Below, one piece after another: positions 4,654-59,151 of a stretch of 64,000 nucleotides of DNA. The notes below the pieces were generated by a model. The model was not told where the DNA came from, did no database searches, and worked only from the letters and a program-made list of their open reading frames with translations. The first letter of the stretch is position 1. Each line of letters opens with the position of its first letter. A program made the position numbers and the translations under genes. Source of the stretch: a bacterium (GTDB taxonomy: Bacteria; Patescibacteriota; UBA1384; CAILIB01); NCBI GenBank assembly GCA_037131105.1, contig JBAXRQ010000001.1, positions 637,465-701,464 of the forward strand. Reading direction: 5' to 3'.

Positions 4654-5322
4654 TTAATCCCGCTCTCGCCAGTCCTTGCCCTGGGGCGGGACATACGTCA
4701 AGTACTCGCAAAACGCCTTCATCCACCGCCACGGGCCATACCCGCTACCAAGACTGACATGTCGGGCGCCATCCAAGATATACAGTTCGGCTCCCAGGCG
4801 CTCAGCAAATGCAGCGAAATGGTCTTCTCCGCCATAGAAGTCGTTTTCACCGCAGATCATCCACGTCTTGCCTCCGCCGCCCACGGCAGTACGGATCCAG
4901 CCCGCCTGAGCCTTGCTTGGCGGTATGAAGTCGCGCACGCAGGGAGGCATTCCACCCGGAACCATACCTGGGGAGATATAGCAGGGCGAGACAAAGATGA
5001 TCCGGTCGGCGACAAAACTTTGGCTTCTCAGCCTGGCGAGTGCGTGCATAAGGGCCACGGCACCGAGGCTGAATCCAATGATGGTGACATCTTTCCAGTG
5101 GGGCAGCCCCTTCAGGATGTTCACGATATCTGCAACCCATTTCTGGAGATTCGGATTCTTGGGTCGCACCAGGTTTGGATATATCACCGTATGCCCTGCT
5201 GCGATAAGTTCCGCCGCCAAATCGTTCAACCAGGTGTCGACGCCGTCATCGTTCGGCTTGCCCTTCCCACCGAGGCCATGAAGCAGGACATAGGTCCTTT
5301 TCTTCTCTGTGCTGATCGCCAT
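4654..5322 (-). CDS. alpha/beta-hydrolase, RBBP9/YdeN-like serine hydrolase
   Basis: GFSLG nucleophile elbow (G-x-S-x-G); ~220 aa, consistent with the YdeN/RBBP9 family. Confidence 0.65.
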   Translation of the reverse strand: MAISTEKKRTYVLLHGLGGKGKPNDDGVDTWLNDLAAELIAAGHTVIYPNLVRPKNPNLQKWVADIVNILKGLPHWKDVTIIGFSLGAVALMHALARLRSQSFVADRIIFVSPCYISPGMVPGGMPPCVRDFIPPSKAQAGWIRTAVGGGGKTWMICGENDFYGGEDHFAAFAERLGAELYILDGARHVSLGSGYGPWRWMKAFCEYLTYVPPQGKDWRERD

Positions 5323-9393: not shown

Positions 9394-9948
9394 TTACGCG
9401 CGCAAGGCCTGCAATATCCGGATGAGGTACTTCAGATGAACGTCTACCTTCCCGTTCATCTTAAGGCAGAAAGCATCGATCATCTGGTGAGTAGCCAAGC
9501 CGTGGAAGCGAATTTCCTCGGTGCCAAGGCCTGTCACCCGGAAGTCGAGCTCAATGTCGTACTTCTCAATCAGATACTTTGCAAGCGCCACTACCCGCTC
9601 AAACTGAAGCTCATTCCCATCAAGATCGGCAGCGTTCTGCCCTTGGATCTCAATGCCGATGCAACTTTCGTTGCCTTCAGCTTTGGCATGCCGGCACCAG
9701 GTATGCGGCTCAGGGACGCACTGGATTATGTCACCATCCGCCATTACGGCAAACTGAACCGACAAAGGCTCGACACCCTCCCGATACAACAGACGGGACA
9801 GGTGCTCAATGCCGCCTTTTTCAATGGGCTCTTGCCACCAGTGAAACACTAAACAGGTCGACTTGATCGTCCTGTCCGGATCCACCCAATGGCATATGGG
9901 CGCCACTTGAATGTCCAAGCCCTCTTTTGGAGTATCCAAATCCCTCAC
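9394..9948 (-). CDS. N-acetylmuramoyl-L-alanine amidase (Amidase_2/PGRP fold)
   Basis: HWW...DGDIIQCVPE...HA...NESCIGIEIQG fits the Amidase_2 profile. Confidence 0.5.
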   Translation of the reverse strand: MRDLDTPKEGLDIQVAPICHWVDPDRTIKSTCLVFHWWQEPIEKGGIEHLSRLLYREGVEPLSVQFAVMADGDIIQCVPEPHTWCRHAKAEGNESCIGIEIQGQNAADLDGNELQFERVVALAKYLIEKYDIELDFRVTGLGTEEIRFHGLATHQMIDAFCLKMNGKVDVHLKYLIRILQALRA

Positions 9949-49041: not shown

Positions 49042-49325
49042 CATCGACGCACTAAATGAGCGTCACCAACAAGAACTTCTGGGAAGAGGCACGCACCTGC
49101 GGCCTCTTCTTTCAGTTAAGCCCCTGGTAATAAAATAGTGCTCAGAGAGGCTTGACGGTCGCTTCCGCCGCCTTTCGCTTCGTATTGAAGCGGCGTCGGA
49201 GCGCTGCGCTAACCCCGCTCTTTGCTCCGCAAAGTTTGGTTTTGGCGTGGTGCTCGTGCTCCTGGTATTTCCAGGAAGCGGTGGAGCAGGGCGGAACTCC
49301 TCGGGTTCAAACCTCCTTCACGGAC

Positions 49326-49361
49326 AAACAAAAAGACCCACTAAAGTGGGTCTTTTTGTTT
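49326..49361. terminator. perfect 16-bp-stem hairpin (A/U-rich) followed by a copy of the tRNA-Pro 3' terminal 16 nt
   Basis: aaacaaaaagacccac-taaa-gtgggtctttttgttt, then tggtcggggagagagg, which is the same sequence as the 3' end of the tRNA at 49523. Confidence 0.5.
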
Positions 49362-49486
49362 GGTCGGGGAGAGAGGCCAAACGGTTAGTCCTCGCTGCCG
49401 CGCCGACAGCACGGGTTGATCCGCTCGGACACTAGCCGCCCCTCCCGGACCGGCGTCGCCTACGGTTCAAATCCTCTTACCGTTAC

Positions 49487-49523
49487 AGAGAAAAAGAACC
49501 AACATAGTTGGTTCTTTTTCTCT
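49487..49523 (-). terminator. perfect 17-bp-stem hairpin abutting the CCA end of tRNA-Pro(GGG)
   Basis: agagaaaaagaaccaac-ata-gttggttctttttctct; identical to the copy at 56108-56144. Confidence 0.6.
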
Positions 49524-49599
49524 GGTCGGGGAGAGAGGATTTGAACCTCCGGTCTCAGGACCCCCAGCCCTGCGCATTAGGCCACTATGCTACTCCCCG
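49523..49599 (-). tRNA. tRNA-Pro (anticodon GGG), CCA encoded
   Basis: Manual cloverleaf: acceptor CGGGGAG/CTCCCCG, D-arm GCAT-AGTGGCCTA-ATGC, anticodon arm CAGGG-CTGGGGG-TCCTG, variable loop AGACC, T-arm GGAGG-TTCAAAT-CCTCT, discriminator A, then CCA. Confidence 0.8.
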
Positions 49600-49846
49600 A
49601 GGTGAACGCAGACGAAAACGTGTTTTCGGCTATGTGAGCCGAGGGGTCTTGCATACAGAGTATGCTACTCCCCGAAGCGAGATAGAAAAGAAAGCTAGCT
49701 TTCTTTTCTGTGAGCGAGGGGATCCGCCGTGCGAAGCACGGTGCTACTCCCCGCTGTTTGTCATTGGCGTTTCGACGAGGGGATGCTTATCCGTAGGATA
49801 AGTCCCCCGAGCCTGTTTAACACCTTTAAGAGTAGCCGTTTTTCCT

Positions 49847-55983: not shown

Positions 55984-56107
55984 TAGTGGGAATAGATTAA
56001 TCGGTTAATCCTCGCTGCAGCGCCGACAGCGCTGATGGCTTCCGCTCGGACACTAGGACCGCCTCCCGGCGGGCCGTCGCCTGCGGTTCAAACCCTCTTA
56101 CCGTTAC

Positions 56108-56144
56108 AGAGAAAAAGAACCAACATAGTTGGTTCTTTTTCTCT
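56108..56144 (-). terminator. perfect 17-bp-stem hairpin abutting the CCA end of tRNA-Pro(CGG)
   Basis: Identical sequence to 49487-49523. Confidence 0.6.
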
Positions 56145-56220
56145 GGTCGGGGAGAGAGGATTTGAACCTCCGGTCTCGGGAACCCGAATCCCGCGCATTA
56201 GGCCGCTATGCTACTCCCCG
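56144..56220 (-). tRNA. tRNA-Pro (anticodon CGG), CCA encoded
   Basis: Same acceptor, D- and T-arms as the GGG copy; anticodon arm CGGGA-TTCGGGT-TCCCG. Confidence 0.8.
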
Positions 56221-56826
56221 GAGAGAACGTCGGGGAAAGCTTGCTTTCACCGATGTGAGCGAGGGGAGGTGCCCACCGAAGGTGGGTGCTACTCCCCGAG
56301 GAGAAATGATGGCGGCCATGCTTGCATGGACATCAGCATTTCGACGAGGGGATGCTCGTCCGTAGGACGAGTCCCCCGAAGCGAGTTGTATTCGGGAAGG
56401 TGGGTGCTACTCCCCGACATTGTATTTTGAAGGATAAGTCCCCCGAGGCGATATTAGAAAGAAGGACTATTTACTCGAGGTACTCGTCTGCCCCGTGGCG
56501 CTACTCATAGACAACAGCAGCGAAGCACCCATTAACCAAATGGAAACTATTACCACCAAAATAATAACCAGCGCCTTTTTCATAATCCCGGCGACATAAA
56601 ATAAAAAGAAGGTGGCTTATCGCTAGAGCGTAGGCGGCCCTAATGGCCAAGTGGGTACTCTCACGCCCGCTCCACGGAGCCGGCAAATATCGAGTTCCCG
56701 TAATACATGAATTGATGACCACCTACGACAGGATAAGCCGCTTATAGAGTACCCTATTTACCCCTCTGTGGCAATCGATCAATACACTGTGTTTACCCCT
56801 TCCCTGGCACTTGCTATACTTATGGA

Positions 56827-59151
56827 ATGAATCACGGTTTCGCTATACAACATTGTCGTATCGTTGCGCCCGAGAGGCTTTCTGACCGCTTTTTAGCCTC
56901 CGGAGTCTTTTTTCAACAGGAGAGCGACAGCGGTCTTGACGACCAGGTCATGCTGGCTTATGTCCTGGAGATCAGTAAACCATGGTTTCCCTCTTCGAAA
57001 GTCCTCCCCTCCTTACTTGAGACCCTGCACACCCAGCACATAGCCCTCAGCTCCAAGCGCGACCTCGGCGACCAATTCGAACTCCTGCTGCGCTCTATCA
57101 ACCAGCAGCTCAACGCCATTTCCGAGCAGGGTGAGACCGACTGGATAGGAAACCTGAACGGCCTAATCATGGTGGCCAGTGGCGATGAGATTCACTTCTC
57201 CCAGACCGGACAAAGCCCCGCCTATCTTCTGCAAAAAAACCGTATTCGCCAGATCACTGACGACACCGGCCACGAGCGCGAGCCCCATCCTCTTAAGACC
57301 TTTGCCAACCTTGCCTCCGGCAACCTGAAAGCCGACGATTATATCCTCGTCTCAAACCGCGAGCTCTATAACGAAGTCTCCCTCGATGCCTTGCGCCGGG
57401 TAATGAACAACAACACTCCTACCGCCGCCTGCCAGTCTATTGTCAAAGAACTCAAGCGCGACAAGAACCTGGCTGTCTCTACCATCATCCTCAAGGTTGC
57501 CTCAAAAGCGGAGGCCAGCCACAAGCACGCCGCCGAGATACATGAGATTATTCTTGAGGATGAGATGCAGAGTAGCTTTAGAAAGGCCCAAAAACGGATA
57601 ATGCCCTGGGTCCAGGTGGGCAAGCGACATTCAGCCACCATTGGCAGGGCCGGACTGAAGGCAGCCAAGACTACCGGCACCGTCATGAAGGAGAAAGTTG
57701 CTCCCAAAGCCGCCGACCTGCTCAACAAAGGCGCGGATCATGCCGTCCAGCTTAAGGGACAGATCGCCGAACGGCGTCAGCATCGTCGTGAGGCTCCTGA
57801 AGAAGAACTTCCCGTAGTCGAGATCATCCTGCCAAAGGCCCAGCGCGAAGCAGCTGCAGAGGCTTCTGTTGCTCGCTTTGAAGCTCCCCGGCTTATCCCT
57901 GATGAAGAGCTGGCTCTGAGCTCATCACATAAGCTCAAGCGGGCACCAGGGGTACCCCTTCCCACCCGCATCCTCAGCTTCTCACGCAATTGGCTGCGCT
58001 CACCCCAGCACAAGCGGCTGGCCGCCTTAACCGTCGCAGTCCTGCTGGTTGCCTTCACCGTGCTTACCGCCATTTCCCGCAGGCAGCCCAGCGCCTCAAC
58101 TACCCCCGACAACCAAATTTCCAAGCAATTAGCCCAGGCCGCTGATCTCCAGAAAAAAGCTGCCAATGCCCAGAAGCTCAACCAACTAGTCGAAGCAAGC
58201 AAAGAGATAAAGCAGGGCGAGGACATTATCAATGGTCTGACCGGACTGACCGCCGATCAGAAGAAAGAAGCTGACGCTACCTGGAAGCTACTAAGCGACG
58301 TAGGAGACTCTCTCAGCACCACTACCCGTCTAGCAGGTACAGCGACCACCTACAAGTTCACTACTGCCAGCCAAAACCTGGTGGCAAGCCTTCCCTTCTT
58401 CTACGGCTCTTCTTCTACGGTAAACGGTCTGCTGCAGACCGGGCAGGGCGATGCCAAGACCATACAACAAACTATTTCCCTGCCCGAAAGTGACGACAGC
58501 ATCGTGAGCATTGCCTCCAGTAGCGAAAGCGATACCGCCGGCTACGCCCTAACCAAGAAGGACAAGGTTTACCGTATCGCCCAGAGCGGAAGCACCACCT
58601 CACTCCACGTCATTGCACCCACCTCTGGAAGCTTCGCCCCTGGGGACGACATCGCTAGCTATAACGGCAATGTCTATATTCTCGACGGTACTACCGGCCT
58701 GCTCTGGAAATACACCAACGGAGGCACTACCTACAGCAAGGGGGTCAGCATCATCGATACTACCAAATATGACATTAAGAAAAGCGTGTCGGTGGCTATC
58801 GACGGTTCGATATATATCCTGAAGCAGGACGGCAGCCTGATGAAGTTCACCAGCGGCGCAGAGGACACCTCATTCAAGATCAAGAGTCTACCTACCCTTT
58901 CGGCAACGCTCACCCAGCCGGTCCAGGTGATCACCAGCGTCGACATGGATGAGATCTACGTTTTGGACGCAGGCGTCAGCAGTGGGAATCATTCTACAGT
59001 ACGGATACTAGTCTTCGACAAGACCGGTCTCTTCCTACGCCAATATGCCTTCCCAGACAGTATGCTACAGGTCCAGGCCTTTGCCGTGGACGCCAGCGCC
59101 AAGAAGATCTGGCTTCTCAGTGGATCAACAATAAGTGAATTCCCCTTTTAG
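56827..59151 (+). CDS. large single-pass membrane protein: N-terminal cytoplasmic PP2C/SpoIIE-like domain (tentative), TM helix, extracellular beta-propeller-like repeat domain
   Basis: TM helix LAALTVAVLLVAFTVLTAI near aa 395. The N-terminal region ...MVASGDEIHFSQTGQSPAYLL...DDYILVSNRELY resembles the SpoIIE-type phosphatase core. The C-terminus has repeated VYILDG/IYILKQDG/IYVLDAG strands. Confidence 0.45.
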   Translation: MNHGFAIQHCRIVAPERLSDRFLASGVFFQQESDSGLDDQVMLAYVLEISKPWFPSSKVLPSLLETLHTQHIALSSKRDLGDQFELLLRSINQQLNAISEQGETDWIGNLNGLIMVASGDEIHFSQTGQSPAYLLQKNRIRQITDDTGHEREPHPLKTFANLASGNLKADDYILVSNRELYNEVSLDALRRVMNNNTPTAACQSIVKELKRDKNLAVSTIILKVASKAEASHKHAAEIHEIILEDEMQSSFRKAQKRIMPWVQVGKRHSATIGRAGLKAAKTTGTVMKEKVAPKAADLLNKGADHAVQLKGQIAERRQHRREAPEEELPVVEIILPKAQREAAAEASVARFEAPRLIPDEELALSSSHKLKRAPGVPLPTRILSFSRNWLRSPQHKRLAALTVAVLLVAFTVLTAISRRQPSASTTPDNQISKQLAQAADLQKKAANAQKLNQLVEASKEIKQGEDIINGLTGLTADQKKEADATWKLLSDVGDSLSTTTRLAGTATTYKFTTASQNLVASLPFFYGSSSTVNGLLQTGQGDAKTIQQTISLPESDDSIVSIASSSESDTAGYALTKKDKVYRIAQSGSTTSLHVIAPTSGSFAPGDDIASYNGNVYILDGTTGLLWKYTNGGTTYSKGVSIIDTTKYDIKKSVSVAIDGSIYILKQDGSLMKFTSGAEDTSFKIKSLPTLSATLTQPVQVITSVDMDEIYVLDAGVSSGNHSTVRILVFDKTGLFLRQYAFPDSMLQVQAFAVDASAKKIWLLSGSTISEFPF

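Follow-up and report, generated by a model that had tools for sequence, protein, structure and literature searches.

Hairpin modules resembling pseudo-tRNA upstream of the tRNA-Pro genes of an uncultured CPR bacterium and its relatives

Introduction

Truncated tRNA-like helices located beside other transcripts have been described as the t-elements of plant mitochondria and as other tRNA-like processing signals, such as mascRNA (Forner et al. 2007; Wilusz et al. 2008). They are derived from tRNAs and are thought to be cut by RNase P or RNase Z, thus defining the RNA ends. Such elements keep an acceptor stem plus a T-arm with a T-loop. Here, hairpin units were analyzed that occurred in tandem directly in front of the parent tRNA-Pro gene in a bacterium, had a 3-nt loop, and possessed neither a T-loop nor a CCA-like tail. 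The functional analogy to the t-elements was proposed by us, and cleavage of the units is inferred only.

In the tyrT operon of Escherichia coli (rtT RNA, Rfam RF00391), a tRNA gene is flanked by tandem units, each containing a short copy of one end of that tRNA. The rtT repeats are 178 bp long, lie downstream and copy the 3' end, whereas the units investigated here were upstream, 63-85 nt long and defined by a covarying hairpin. No Rfam hit to this family was obtained, even at E<=10. The architecture of a 162-nt unit carrying the 16-nt tRNA 3' end (49361-49538) was analogous to rtT, and the 5' units resembled it as a mirror image.

The REP/BIME extragenic palindromes are short imperfect palindromes with conserved feet and variable stems, sometimes tandem, which lie in transcribed intergenic DNA and may act on both RNA stability and DNA. 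REPs are scattered over hundreds of intergenic sites and are tied to a RAYT (Y1) transposase. In the present case, five copies were found in the 64-kb window, all next to tRNA-Pro, and none away from tRNA-Pro in the 855 kb searched, which did not include the whole genome. The units also copied the tRNA 5' end, and none of the neighboring genes scanned was a transposase.

Integrative elements leave att-site scars and CIME-like remnants at tRNA genes, seen as direct repeats of a tRNA end (Williams 2002). Known integrases replace the 3' part of the tRNA, while the units copied the 5' part with variable breakpoints and carried a covarying hairpin, which att sites do not need. Finally, the TIGR (tandem interspaced guide RNA) arrays of CPR bacteria and phages consist of short tandem units with conserved edges and loop and two variable segments, found in parasitic bacteria (PMC12045711). 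TIGR units are 36 nt long, carry box C/D motifs, lie next to a Tas (Nop-domain) gene, and their spacers A and B of ~9 nt neither covary nor are complementary. The identity of the units as a TIGR array was rejected, since their two variable segments were complementary and no Nop-domain (Tas) match appeared among the ten neighboring ORFs scanned.

Results

Two tRNA-Pro blocks and their upstream units

The window was a 64,000-nt stretch of contig JBAXRQ010000001.1 (GCA_037131105.1, positions 637,465 to 701,464), and all coordinates below refer to it. Two tRNA-Pro genes, both on the minus strand, were found by ARAGORN and Rfam. The features of the two blocks were as follows; those without a strand are given by coordinates alone.

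56338-56381, minus strand: unit u5 (type B), CUUCGGGGGA-CUCGUCC-UAC-GGACGAG-CA-UCCCCUCG-UCGAAAU; covariance-model hit of 38.9 bits, E=2.4e-6; predicted MFE hairpin, z=-3.8.
56304-56341, minus strand: second small hairpin (h2) of the u5 module, core CCAUGC-AA-GCAUGG, by MFE fold; a hairpin with a GCWWGC center held the same position in relatives.
56253-56300, minus strand: unit u4 (type A), starting with CGGGGAGUAGCA, the first 12 nt of tRNA-Pro, followed by the inner stem CCCACC-UUC-GGUGGG and then CCUCCCCUCGCUCAC; 35.4 bits.
56230-56253, minus strand: h2 of the u4 module (GAAAGC-AA-GCUUUC), by MFE fold and repeat analysis, about 12 nt before the tRNA 5' end.
56396-56417, minus strand: half unit A', the 5' arm plus loop of u4, 22/22 identical, cut at the loop.
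56431-56451, minus strand: half unit B', the 5' arm of a type B unit with the block-1 (UUAU) stem version, cut at the loop.
56144-56220, minus strand: tRNA-Pro(CGG), with CCA encoded; Rfam RF00005, 61.9 bits.
56107-56145: hairpin with 18-nt arms, an A-run before and a U-run after, directly after the tRNA 3' end.
55999-56107: conserved ~110-nt structured segment downstream of the terminator-like hairpin.
49770-49812, minus strand: unit u3 (type B) of block 1, the paralog of u5; 33.4 bits.
49707-49755, minus strand: unit u2 (type A) of block 1, the paralog of u4; 29.9 bits.
49684-49709, minus strand: h2 of u2, AGAAAAGAAAGC-UA-GCUUUCUUUUCU, terminator-like by MFE fold; z=-4.1 for the module.
49631-49676, minus strand: unit u1 (type A) of block 1, starting with the first 14 nt of tRNA-Pro; 33.9 bits.
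49613-49628, minus strand: h2 of u1, CGAAAAC-AC-GUUUUCG.
49523-49599, minus strand: tRNA-Pro(GGG).
49486-49524: the same terminator-like hairpin as at 56107-56145.
49378-49486: block-1 copy of the ~110-nt segment.
49361-49376, minus strand: duplicated last 16 nt of tRNA-Pro (CCUCUCUCCCCGACCA), 162 nt from the real 3' end, followed by an older terminator hairpin (49316-49371).

The sequence-only reading had claimed that a second tRNA-Pro(CGG) block repeated the order of the first one, and that matched base changes between the blocks preserved a hairpin. This observation was confirmed. The units u3 and u5 differed in the inner stem by exactly four substitutions that made two compensated base pairs, T-A to C-G and A-T to G-C. 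The half copy noticed at ~56431-56450 was real as well. However, several details were corrected. Only the second block carried the CGG anticodon, while block 1 carried GGG. Since both genes were on the minus strand, the functional order was units (5' leader), then tRNA, then terminator-like hairpin, then the ~110-nt segment, and the so-called tandem units lay in the 5' leader. The hairpin reported as 17 bp had 18-nt arms and was identical in both blocks over 39 nt. The ~110-nt segment, reported as ~85% identical, was 83% identical between the blocks. The half unit A', the second paralogous pair (u2 and u4), the h2 hairpin following each unit, and the 16-nt copy of the tRNA 3' end had been missed.

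The 39-nt hairpin could act as a bidirectional intrinsic terminator by its anatomy, however the consensus terminator scan did not call it. The ~110-nt segment was also present in L009 with covarying hairpins (L numbers designate the relatives), and gave no Rfam hit.

Compensatory changes in the stems

The pair u2 and u4 showed three more compensated pairs. Hence, the paralogs within the genome had five compensated and no uncompensated inner-stem changes, for which a simple combinatorial estimate gave about 6e-7. The pattern GAGGGG-N12-36-YCCCCG occurred 5 times in the window against 1.0 expected, and none of 100 shuffles reached 5.

Further, 18 units from 11 related Patescibacteria (Berkelbacteria-like) genomes were aligned by MAFFT without structural information. 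The units shared CUCGGGG...CCCCUCG flanks but had unrelated inner stems. In this alignment 85.4% of the cells paired, against 66.2 +/- 1.9% in shuffles and 38-54% in slid controls. All 7 inner-stem pairs, and 8 of the 11 pairs overall, showed changes on both sides, with 42 double-sided changes against 11.8 expected. The type B units that appeared orthologous shared the tail CCCUCGUCGAAA, but their stems were unrelated. Therefore, the interpretation in the sequence-only reading, that compensatory change preserved a hairpin and the secondary structure was under constraint, was supported and became much stronger with more data. That reading had left open whether RNA or DNA was constrained. The stems were almost pure Watson-Crick and folded equally well on both strands (11 against 10 G-U pairs; -328 against -330 kcal/mol summed), and nothing in the stems proved that the RNA of the tRNA strand was the folded molecule.

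Distribution, specificity and relation to tRNA-Pro

A covariance model was searched against 855 kb on both strands. All 18 hits with E<0.02 were these units, located directly upstream of tRNA-Pro and on the tRNA strand, and there were none elsewhere. The proximal unit ended 30-40 nt before the tRNA 5' end in every genome, and further ones followed at 85-117 and 170 nt. Copy number ranged from 0 to 3.

Six or seven of the units, termed type A, began with the first 8-15 nt of the local tRNA-Pro and followed its lineage-specific variants: A7 in L032, G7 in the window, L029 and L031, and UCGC in L033. In more distant relatives the upstream modules retained the acceptor 5' strand plus the D-arm (L036, L055), and L039 also kept the acceptor 3' strand. 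Exact 11-nt copies of a tRNA's own 5' end lay upstream of 10 of 54 tRNA-Pro genes, against 1 of 100 Thr/Tyr/Trp genes of more distant relatives (Fisher p=1.2e-4). No further tRNA was found within 10 kb beyond either window end.

The modal predicted stem was 12 pairs (8 of 19 units; range 10-16), which corresponded to the continuous helix of about 12 bp of an RNase P minihelix-type substrate. UC preceded the G run in 15 of 19 units, and the real tRNA-Pro leaders often ended in U before CGGGG. However, the tail after the stem was UCG-CUCRC or UCG-UCGAAA and never ACCA, so the RCCA tail, a defining contact of bacterial RNase P substrates, was missing. The loop was cUNCg on the tRNA strand in 14 of 19 units and cUUCg in 10 of 19. 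On the opposite strand these loops read cGNAg, which by sequence alone would correspond to the classic very stable DNA minihairpin loop d(GCGAAGC).

Database and motif searches

Rfam was searched at gathering thresholds over the whole window and at E<=10 over both blocks. Only the two tRNAs matched, the remaining hits were noise, and the units themselves gave no tRNA hit. A search of genome contigs with the single 774-aa neighboring protein returned nothing, while an alignment-based search was successful. A viral or mobile origin was considered and rejected on the following searches. A scan of IMG/VR for the conserved core of the ~110-nt segment gave only chance hits in coding DNA. A scan for the unit pattern gave generic GC-rich hairpins, and none of 121 was near a tRNA-Pro 5' end. 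Literature searches for CPR tRNA-linked hairpins or repeats and for tandem tRNA-like minihelices found nothing relevant.

No sigma-70-like promoter was called on the tRNA strand in either block, where only 31 nt (block 1) and 32 nt (block 2) separated the unit's tail from the tRNA. When the conserved tails were read as -35 boxes, no -10 box was found at the right spacing. In contrast, L024, which had no units, showed a canonical TTGATA-17-TATGCT just before the tRNA, as read by eye. A far-upstream promoter is plausible on this basis. A leader peptide or attenuator was also considered. It was rejected, since only trivial ORFs of 6-18 codons ending at the UAG of the tRNA (U8-A9-G10) were seen by eye, with no enrichment of proline codons.

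The 3' end of tRNA-Pro as an integration site

The 16-nt duplication at 49361-49376 was an exact match against 0.06 expected and looked like an att-type scar. An integrase ORF (phrog_95, E=1.5e-13) ended inside the tRNA 3' end in L024 and in L001, the latter being the same organism from another sample, and the site was polymorphic within one population. Fragments of the tRNA 3' end were duplicated in the window, L010, L032 and L033. A tblastn search of the integrase fragment against the phage collection gave no match. The criteria of an att-site duplication were thus fulfilled on the 3' side only. On the 5' side, the copied piece varied between 8 and 29 nt and no recombinase was found.

Discussion

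Based on these data, it was tentatively proposed that the units are collapsed, miniaturized derivatives of tRNA-Pro in the 5' leader of the tRNA-Pro genes. Each module consists of a hairpin of about 12 bp, whose outer stem GGGG(A)/(U)CCCC corresponds to the tRNA-Pro acceptor stem and whose 5' arm in type A units is a literal copy of tRNA nucleotides 1-12/15; a conserved tail, CCCCUCG followed by CUCRC or UCGAAA; a small terminator-like hairpin with an A-run and a U-run; and a pyrimidine-rich spacer of about 10-14 nt ending, like the real leader, in U before CGGGG. The modules would arise by repeated partial duplication or insertion at the 5' end of tRNA-Pro, with a quick turnover of copies. 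They would be transcribed with the tRNA from an upstream promoter, as part of the sRNA or small-ORF transcript in block 2 and of the glycosyltransferase mRNA in block 1. In this view, selection would keep each module folded for two reasons. An unpaired G-rich or C-rich pseudo-acceptor strand could mispair with the acceptor strands of the adjacent real tRNA. Also, the folded minihelix, with U at -1 and C at +1, would be an RNase P-type processing site and a stable end separating the upstream RNA from the tRNA, much as the plant mitochondrial t-elements do. The location, the strand-fixed orientation, the covariation, the derivation from the tRNA, the specificity for tRNA-Pro and the copy-number turnover were established by the analysis, while the mode of origin, transcription, cleavage by RNase P and the selective reason for folding were inferred. 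It should be considered that L024 and L232 had no units although their tRNA-Pro 5' sequence was identical to that of the window, and the units are therefore dispensable for tRNA expression. Moreover, half units cut at the loop looked like breakage of a palindrome at the DNA level.

A serious rival, although less likely, was a DNA-level element, namely miniature non-autonomous insertion or recombination modules of about 63-90 bp that would home into the first 12-21 bp of tRNA-Pro genes and duplicate the target, thus restoring the tRNA. The covariation would then reflect constraint on a single-stranded or cruciform DNA hairpin recognized by a recombinase or transposase. The strict specificity for tRNA-Pro, the half units, the cGNAg loops on the plus strand, the copy number of 0 to 3 even among genomes with an identical tRNA-Pro 5' sequence, and the demonstrable recombination at the 3' end of the same tRNA agreed with such a view. 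Type A modules also looked like an insert flanked by a direct repeat of tRNA nt 1-12/15. Further, the conserved type B leader YUUCUCCU directly preceded the real tRNA in L007, L012, L233 and L033, but preceded the type A pseudo-5' fragment in window block 2 and in L032, as expected for an insertion inside the tRNA 5' end. However, no transposase or recombinase was linked to the 5' side, where the neighbors were housekeeping genes, the copied tRNA piece varied in length (8, 12, 14-15, 19-29 nt), unlike a fixed crossover or target duplication, the inserts had no terminal inverted repeats, and no copies were found at any other site or in the viral contigs searched. GC skew placed the tRNA strand on the leading strand, so the plus strand with the GNA loops was not the lagging-strand template. 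An improbable but not excluded extension of this view is a new kind of miniature homing element, an insert of about 65-90 bp targeting the first 12-21 bp of tRNA-Pro genes in CPR bacteria and regenerating the tRNA by target duplication. Next to a stable hairpin it carries a segment complementary to the target (CCCCUCG against CGGGGAG), which could serve as a base-pairing guide for a still unidentified single-strand-DNA or RNA-guided enzyme.

It was considered unlikely that the units were neutral debris, i.e., decaying tandem copies of tRNA-Pro or integration scars whose arms stayed complementary because the copies were young or because mismatches in a palindrome were corrected arm against arm. 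The units were dispensable and turned over rapidly, degenerate forms existed (the second unit of L029, L007a, half units), nested and fragmentary tRNA-Pro copies were common in this group, and there was no strand asymmetry. However, units with conserved flanks and tails in genomes whose adjacent 774-aa protein was only 38-58% identical had completely different stems, yet still paired. Youth could not explain five compensated and no uncompensated changes between paralogs whose flanks were 65-74% identical, and both the non-random loop and the constant spacing to the tRNA argued against debris. Independent or processed small RNAs acting in trans were very unlikely. Each module did have the architecture of a classical bacterial sRNA, with a 5' hairpin, a conserved single-stranded seed (CCCUCG-CUCAC or UCGAAAUG) as its most conserved part, and a terminator hairpin, and the h2 hairpins carried U-runs. 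Nevertheless, no promoter was found in front of any module, no target was identified, the supposed seed was partly inside the stem, and the strict linkage to and derivation from tRNA-Pro remained unexplained. The least likely were ordinary intrinsic terminators of the upstream genes, although the units lay 38 nt after the glycosyltransferase stop codon in block 1 and directly after the small ORF in block 2, and the h2 hairpins were terminator-like. The covarying hairpin (h1) was never followed by a U-tract but by CGCUCAC or CGUCGAAA, and the h2 hairpins had U-runs inside or after weak stems. The terminator scan called none of the units or their h2 hairpins, its only hit in the unit region (49738-49757, plus strand) being a different stem. 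Moreover, conserved flanks, copies of the tRNA 5' end and several copies in a row are not features of terminators.

If the RNA reading is right, this lineage of ultra-small, host-dependent bacteria uses collapsed copies of a tRNA as structural punctuation in front of the real tRNA, which would be a bacterial counterpart of the mitochondrial t-elements and a clean natural example of selection maintaining pseudo-tRNA folding so that it does not interfere in cis. If the DNA reading is right, tRNA-Pro in these genomes is targeted at both ends, by a serine-type integrase at the 3' end and by an unknown hairpin-dependent process at the 5' end. In either case, the family is absent from Rfam and is well suited to experiment, being short, variable in copy number among close relatives and clear in its compensatory changes. 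The locus also yielded a second, well-supported unannotated structured RNA at 56598-56748.

Genomic context of the tRNA-Pro genes

The 774-aa protein encoded at 56827-59151 was identical to a hypothetical protein of an uncultured bacterial MAG (contig of 949 kb). The relatives of this protein were found in Patescibacteria/CPR, mostly labelled Berkelbacteria, the closest one being 55% identical. Metagenome contigs 100% identical to the window were found in five samples. The gene appears to be leaderless, since an extended -10 box (TGnTATACT; region 56792-56827, plus strand) ended 7 nt before the ATG, and this arrangement was conserved in all relatives.

Two tRNA genes were detected in the window by ARAGORN and Rfam. 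The elements of the two tRNA-Pro blocks were as follows:

49523-49599, minus strand: tRNA-Pro(GGG)
56144-56220, minus strand: tRNA-Pro(CGG)
49770-49812 and 56338-56381: a pair of paralogous hairpin units
49707-49755 and 56253-56300: a second pair of paralogous units
56431-56451: half unit
56396-56417: half unit, matching the 5' half of the unit at 56253-56300
49378-49486 and 55999-56107: ~110-nt segment of each block
~56464-56580, minus strand: small ORF of 38 codons
56598-56748, minus strand: conserved structured RNA of about 150 nt

Read in the direction of the genes, each block started with tandem units, followed by the tRNA, a hairpin and the ~110-nt segment. The hairpin had 18-nt arms, an A-run and a U-run, was identical over 39 nt in both blocks, and by its anatomy looked like a bidirectional terminator. 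The ~110-nt segment was 83% identical between the blocks. The genes between and around the blocks were ordinary housekeeping genes, namely D-Ala-D-Ala ligase, NUDIX, CYTH, a glycosyltransferase, TyrRS and a PBP.

The structured RNA at 56598-56748 was located between the divergent 774-aa gene and the tRNA-Pro units, and was also present in the loci L006-L012, L024-L033 and L231-L234 (L numbers denote the compared loci outside the window). It had a long closing stem that ended in a U-run, and its core read CGUAUGUGGUCAUC...GGGAUUCCAAUAUCUG-hairpin-CGUGMGGnAACCCACYUGG...CCAGGCCGCAUACG. In 14 genomes, 14 of 26 predicted pairs showed compensatory changes, and three G-U pairs were invariant on the minus strand, which fixed the strand. 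No Rfam hit was obtained even at E<=10. It was probably an undescribed sRNA of this CPR group. The small ORF of 38 codons, encoding a hydrophobic peptide (MKKALVIILVVIVSIWLMGASLLLSMSSATGQTSTSSK), was located between this putative sRNA and the half units, and relatives carried other small ORFs at this position.

Hairpin units and compensatory changes in the window

The observation made in the sequence-only reading was confirmed, as everything it had described was present within a base or two of where it had been placed. The units at 49770-49812 and 56338-56381, which had been reported to covary, differed in the inner stem by four substitutions forming two compensated pairs, and the half copy at 56431-56451 was real. 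Additionally, the second half unit at 56396-56417 was 22/22 identical to the 5' half of the unit at 56253-56300. The second paralogous pair, 49707-49755 against 56253-56300, contained three further compensated pairs and no uncompensated inner-stem change. A simple combinatorial estimate for both pairs together was about 6e-7. Every unit was followed by a second small hairpin (h2) with an A-run, a U-run and a GCWWGC centre. The pattern GAGGGG-N12-36-YCCCCG occurred five times in the window, all at the two blocks, against one expected.

Conservation of the units in related genomes

The tRNA-Pro gene next to the 774-aa gene was syntenic across this group. The leader was read in every close relative where the tRNA pointed away from the gene, and each leader contained 0 to 3 units of the same design. 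The unit consisted of CUCGGGG, a 6-10-bp stem of arbitrary sequence, a 3-nt loop, the complementary arm, CCCCUCG and a tail (CUCRC in type A, UCGAAA in type B), followed by h2, a pyrimidine-rich spacer and then the tRNA or the next unit.

Further, 18 units from 11 genomes were aligned with MAFFT without any structural input. In that alignment 85.4% of cells paired, against 66.2 +/- 1.9% in shuffles and 38-54% when the partner column was slid. All seven inner-stem pairs, and 8 of the 11 pairs overall, changed on both sides, and 42 double-sided changes were counted against 11.8 expected. A covariance model built from this alignment was run over 855 kb of sequence on both strands, and only these units were found at E<0.02. 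All of them were on the tRNA strand and upstream of a tRNA-Pro gene, the furthest ending 170 nt before it. The proximal unit ended 30-40 nt before the tRNA 5' end in every genome. The interpretation that the secondary structure is under constraint was therefore supported well beyond the single pair of units on which it had been based.

Derivation of the units from tRNA-Pro

Type A units began with an exact copy of the first 8-15 nt of the local tRNA-Pro and followed its lineage-specific variants. The copied sequence was CGGGGAAUAGCAUA in L032, CGGGGAGUAGCA in the window, L029 and L031, and GGAGUCGC in L033, whose tRNA had the unusual UCGC. In more distant relatives the upstream modules kept still more of the tRNA: the acceptor 5' strand plus D-arm in L036 and L055, the acceptor 5' strand, D-arm and acceptor 3' strand in L039, and 21 nt that fold back on a downstream complement in L021. 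The tandem modules of these more distant relatives (L021 8320-8600; L036 3520-3657; L055, L039 and L057 upstream of tRNA-Pro) kept 13-29 nt of the tRNA (acceptor 5' strand plus D-arm) and ended in a hairpin of the type YCGAC-GAA(A)-GUCGR. L036 had two nearly identical 66-nt copies, and the motif UCGWCGAA resembled the type B tail of the window units.

As a control, exact 11-nt copies of a tRNA's own 5' end were counted within 400 nt upstream. They occurred for 10 of 54 tRNA-Pro, 0 of 51 tRNA-Thr, 0 of 26 tRNA-Tyr and 1 of 23 tRNA-Trp genes (Fisher p=1.2e-4). Thus, the units are collapsed derivatives of tRNA-Pro, in which the outer stem GGGG(A)/(U)CCCC is the vestige of the acceptor stem.

The conserved type B leader YUUCUCCU preceded the real tRNA in L007, L012, L233 and L033, whereas in window block 2 and in L032 it preceded the pseudo-5' fragment of a type A unit instead. 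It was therefore inferred that type A units arise by insertion or duplication inside the first 12-15 nt of the gene. The units are also dispensable, since L024 and L232 had none, although their tRNA-Pro 5' sequence was identical to that of the window. A canonical promoter, read by eye, was present directly before the tRNA in L024.

Nested tRNA-Pro-like sequences were observed in L017 (~9740-9900), L022 (~4780-5150) and L019 (4061-4170), where a complete tRNA-Pro(GGG) was located between the 5' half and the 3' half of an older tRNA-Pro-like gene, and the leader and trailer paired to extend the acceptor stem. L022 also had repeated 3' halves. This looked like a gene nested within a gene, or repeated replacement of this tRNA.

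The 3' side of the tRNA-Pro genes

A 16-nt copy of the tRNA 3' end was located 162 nt from the real one in block 1, and similar fragments lay 115-140 nt downstream in L010, L032 and L033. L001 represented the same organism from another sample and was 100% identical over 14.5 kb. However, the sequence to the left of the tRNA was replaced in L001 by the end of an ORF whose last eight codons overlapped the tRNA 3' end. The homologous ORF in L024 matched the phage integrase family phrog_95 (E=1.5e-13) and, weakly, the recombinase zinc ribbon and the SPbeta large serine recombinase. This integrase ORF (L001 1-210 and L024 115-759; compare window 49335-49522) ended inside the 3' end of tRNA-Pro on the opposite strand, and in L001 it replaced the terminator-like hairpin and the 110-nt segment of the window, hence the site is polymorphic within the population. 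Several contigs of relatives (L025, L232 and L233) broke at or just past the tRNA-Pro 3' end. It was concluded that the tRNA-Pro 3' end is a live attachment site in this population, which explains the 3' fragment but does not explain the 5' units. In L056 (5200-5440), a tRNA-Trp gene was followed by a duplicated copy of its 3' end and by tandem CCCCGCAGCUGCGGGGCGUG palindromes, which was probably another integration scar.

The ~110-nt segment after the terminator-like hairpin (49378-49486 and 55999-56107 in the window, 9090-9203 in L009) had two hairpins that covaried among its three copies, one of them with a constant UGUCG loop. Its first ~30 nt (GARGRGGWUUYGAAMCC..AGG) was an inverted look-alike of a tRNA T-arm, and that part followed the tRNA-Pro terminator in 8 loci. 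No Rfam hit was obtained for this segment.

Proposed role of the units

The orientation of flanks and tails was fixed relative to the tRNA, and the units lay where the precursor leader must be. For that reason we favoured structure at the level of RNA. However, the stems gave no help, as the G-U counts (11 against 10) and the summed energies (-328 against -330 kcal/mol) were the same on both strands. The loop was strongly non-random, with cUUCg in 10, cUACg in 3 and cUGCg in 1 of 19 units. On the opposite strand these read cGNAg, which would correspond to the loop of the very stable DNA minihairpin d(GCGAAGC). GC skew was negative on the plus strand throughout the window, so the tRNAs are on the leading strand and the plus strand is not the lagging-strand template. 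The two half units were cut exactly at the loop, which is what palindrome breakage in DNA would give. A DNA-level module was therefore kept as a serious rival.

The analysis itself established that these are tRNA-Pro-specific, tRNA-derived hairpin modules with conserved feet, tails and spacing, that their stems are maintained by compensatory change, and that they are rapidly gained and lost; what follows on their expression and function was inferred. We proposed that the modules are co-transcribed with the tRNA, and that folding is selected because a free pseudo-acceptor strand would compete with the acceptor strands of the neighbouring tRNA. Folding would also be selected because a ~12-bp minihelix preceded by U is the kind of substrate RNase P accepts; the modal predicted stem was 12 pairs, and UC preceded the G run in 15 of 19 units. 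The missing RCCA tail and the dispensability of the units weigh against a strict RNase P-substrate reading. In the proposed view, the modules would punctuate the transcript between the upstream RNA and the tRNA, and the h2 hairpins would act as leaky terminators.

The closest functional analogy was with the tRNA-like t-elements of plant mitochondria, the closest architectural analogy with the tyrT/rtT repeats of E. coli, and the closest sequence-design analogy with REP elements. Where membership could be tested, the units did not qualify for any of these three. TIGR arrays of CPR bacteria were considered and rejected. There is no Rfam family for the units, which were regarded as a variant among tRNA-derived structured leader or processing elements.
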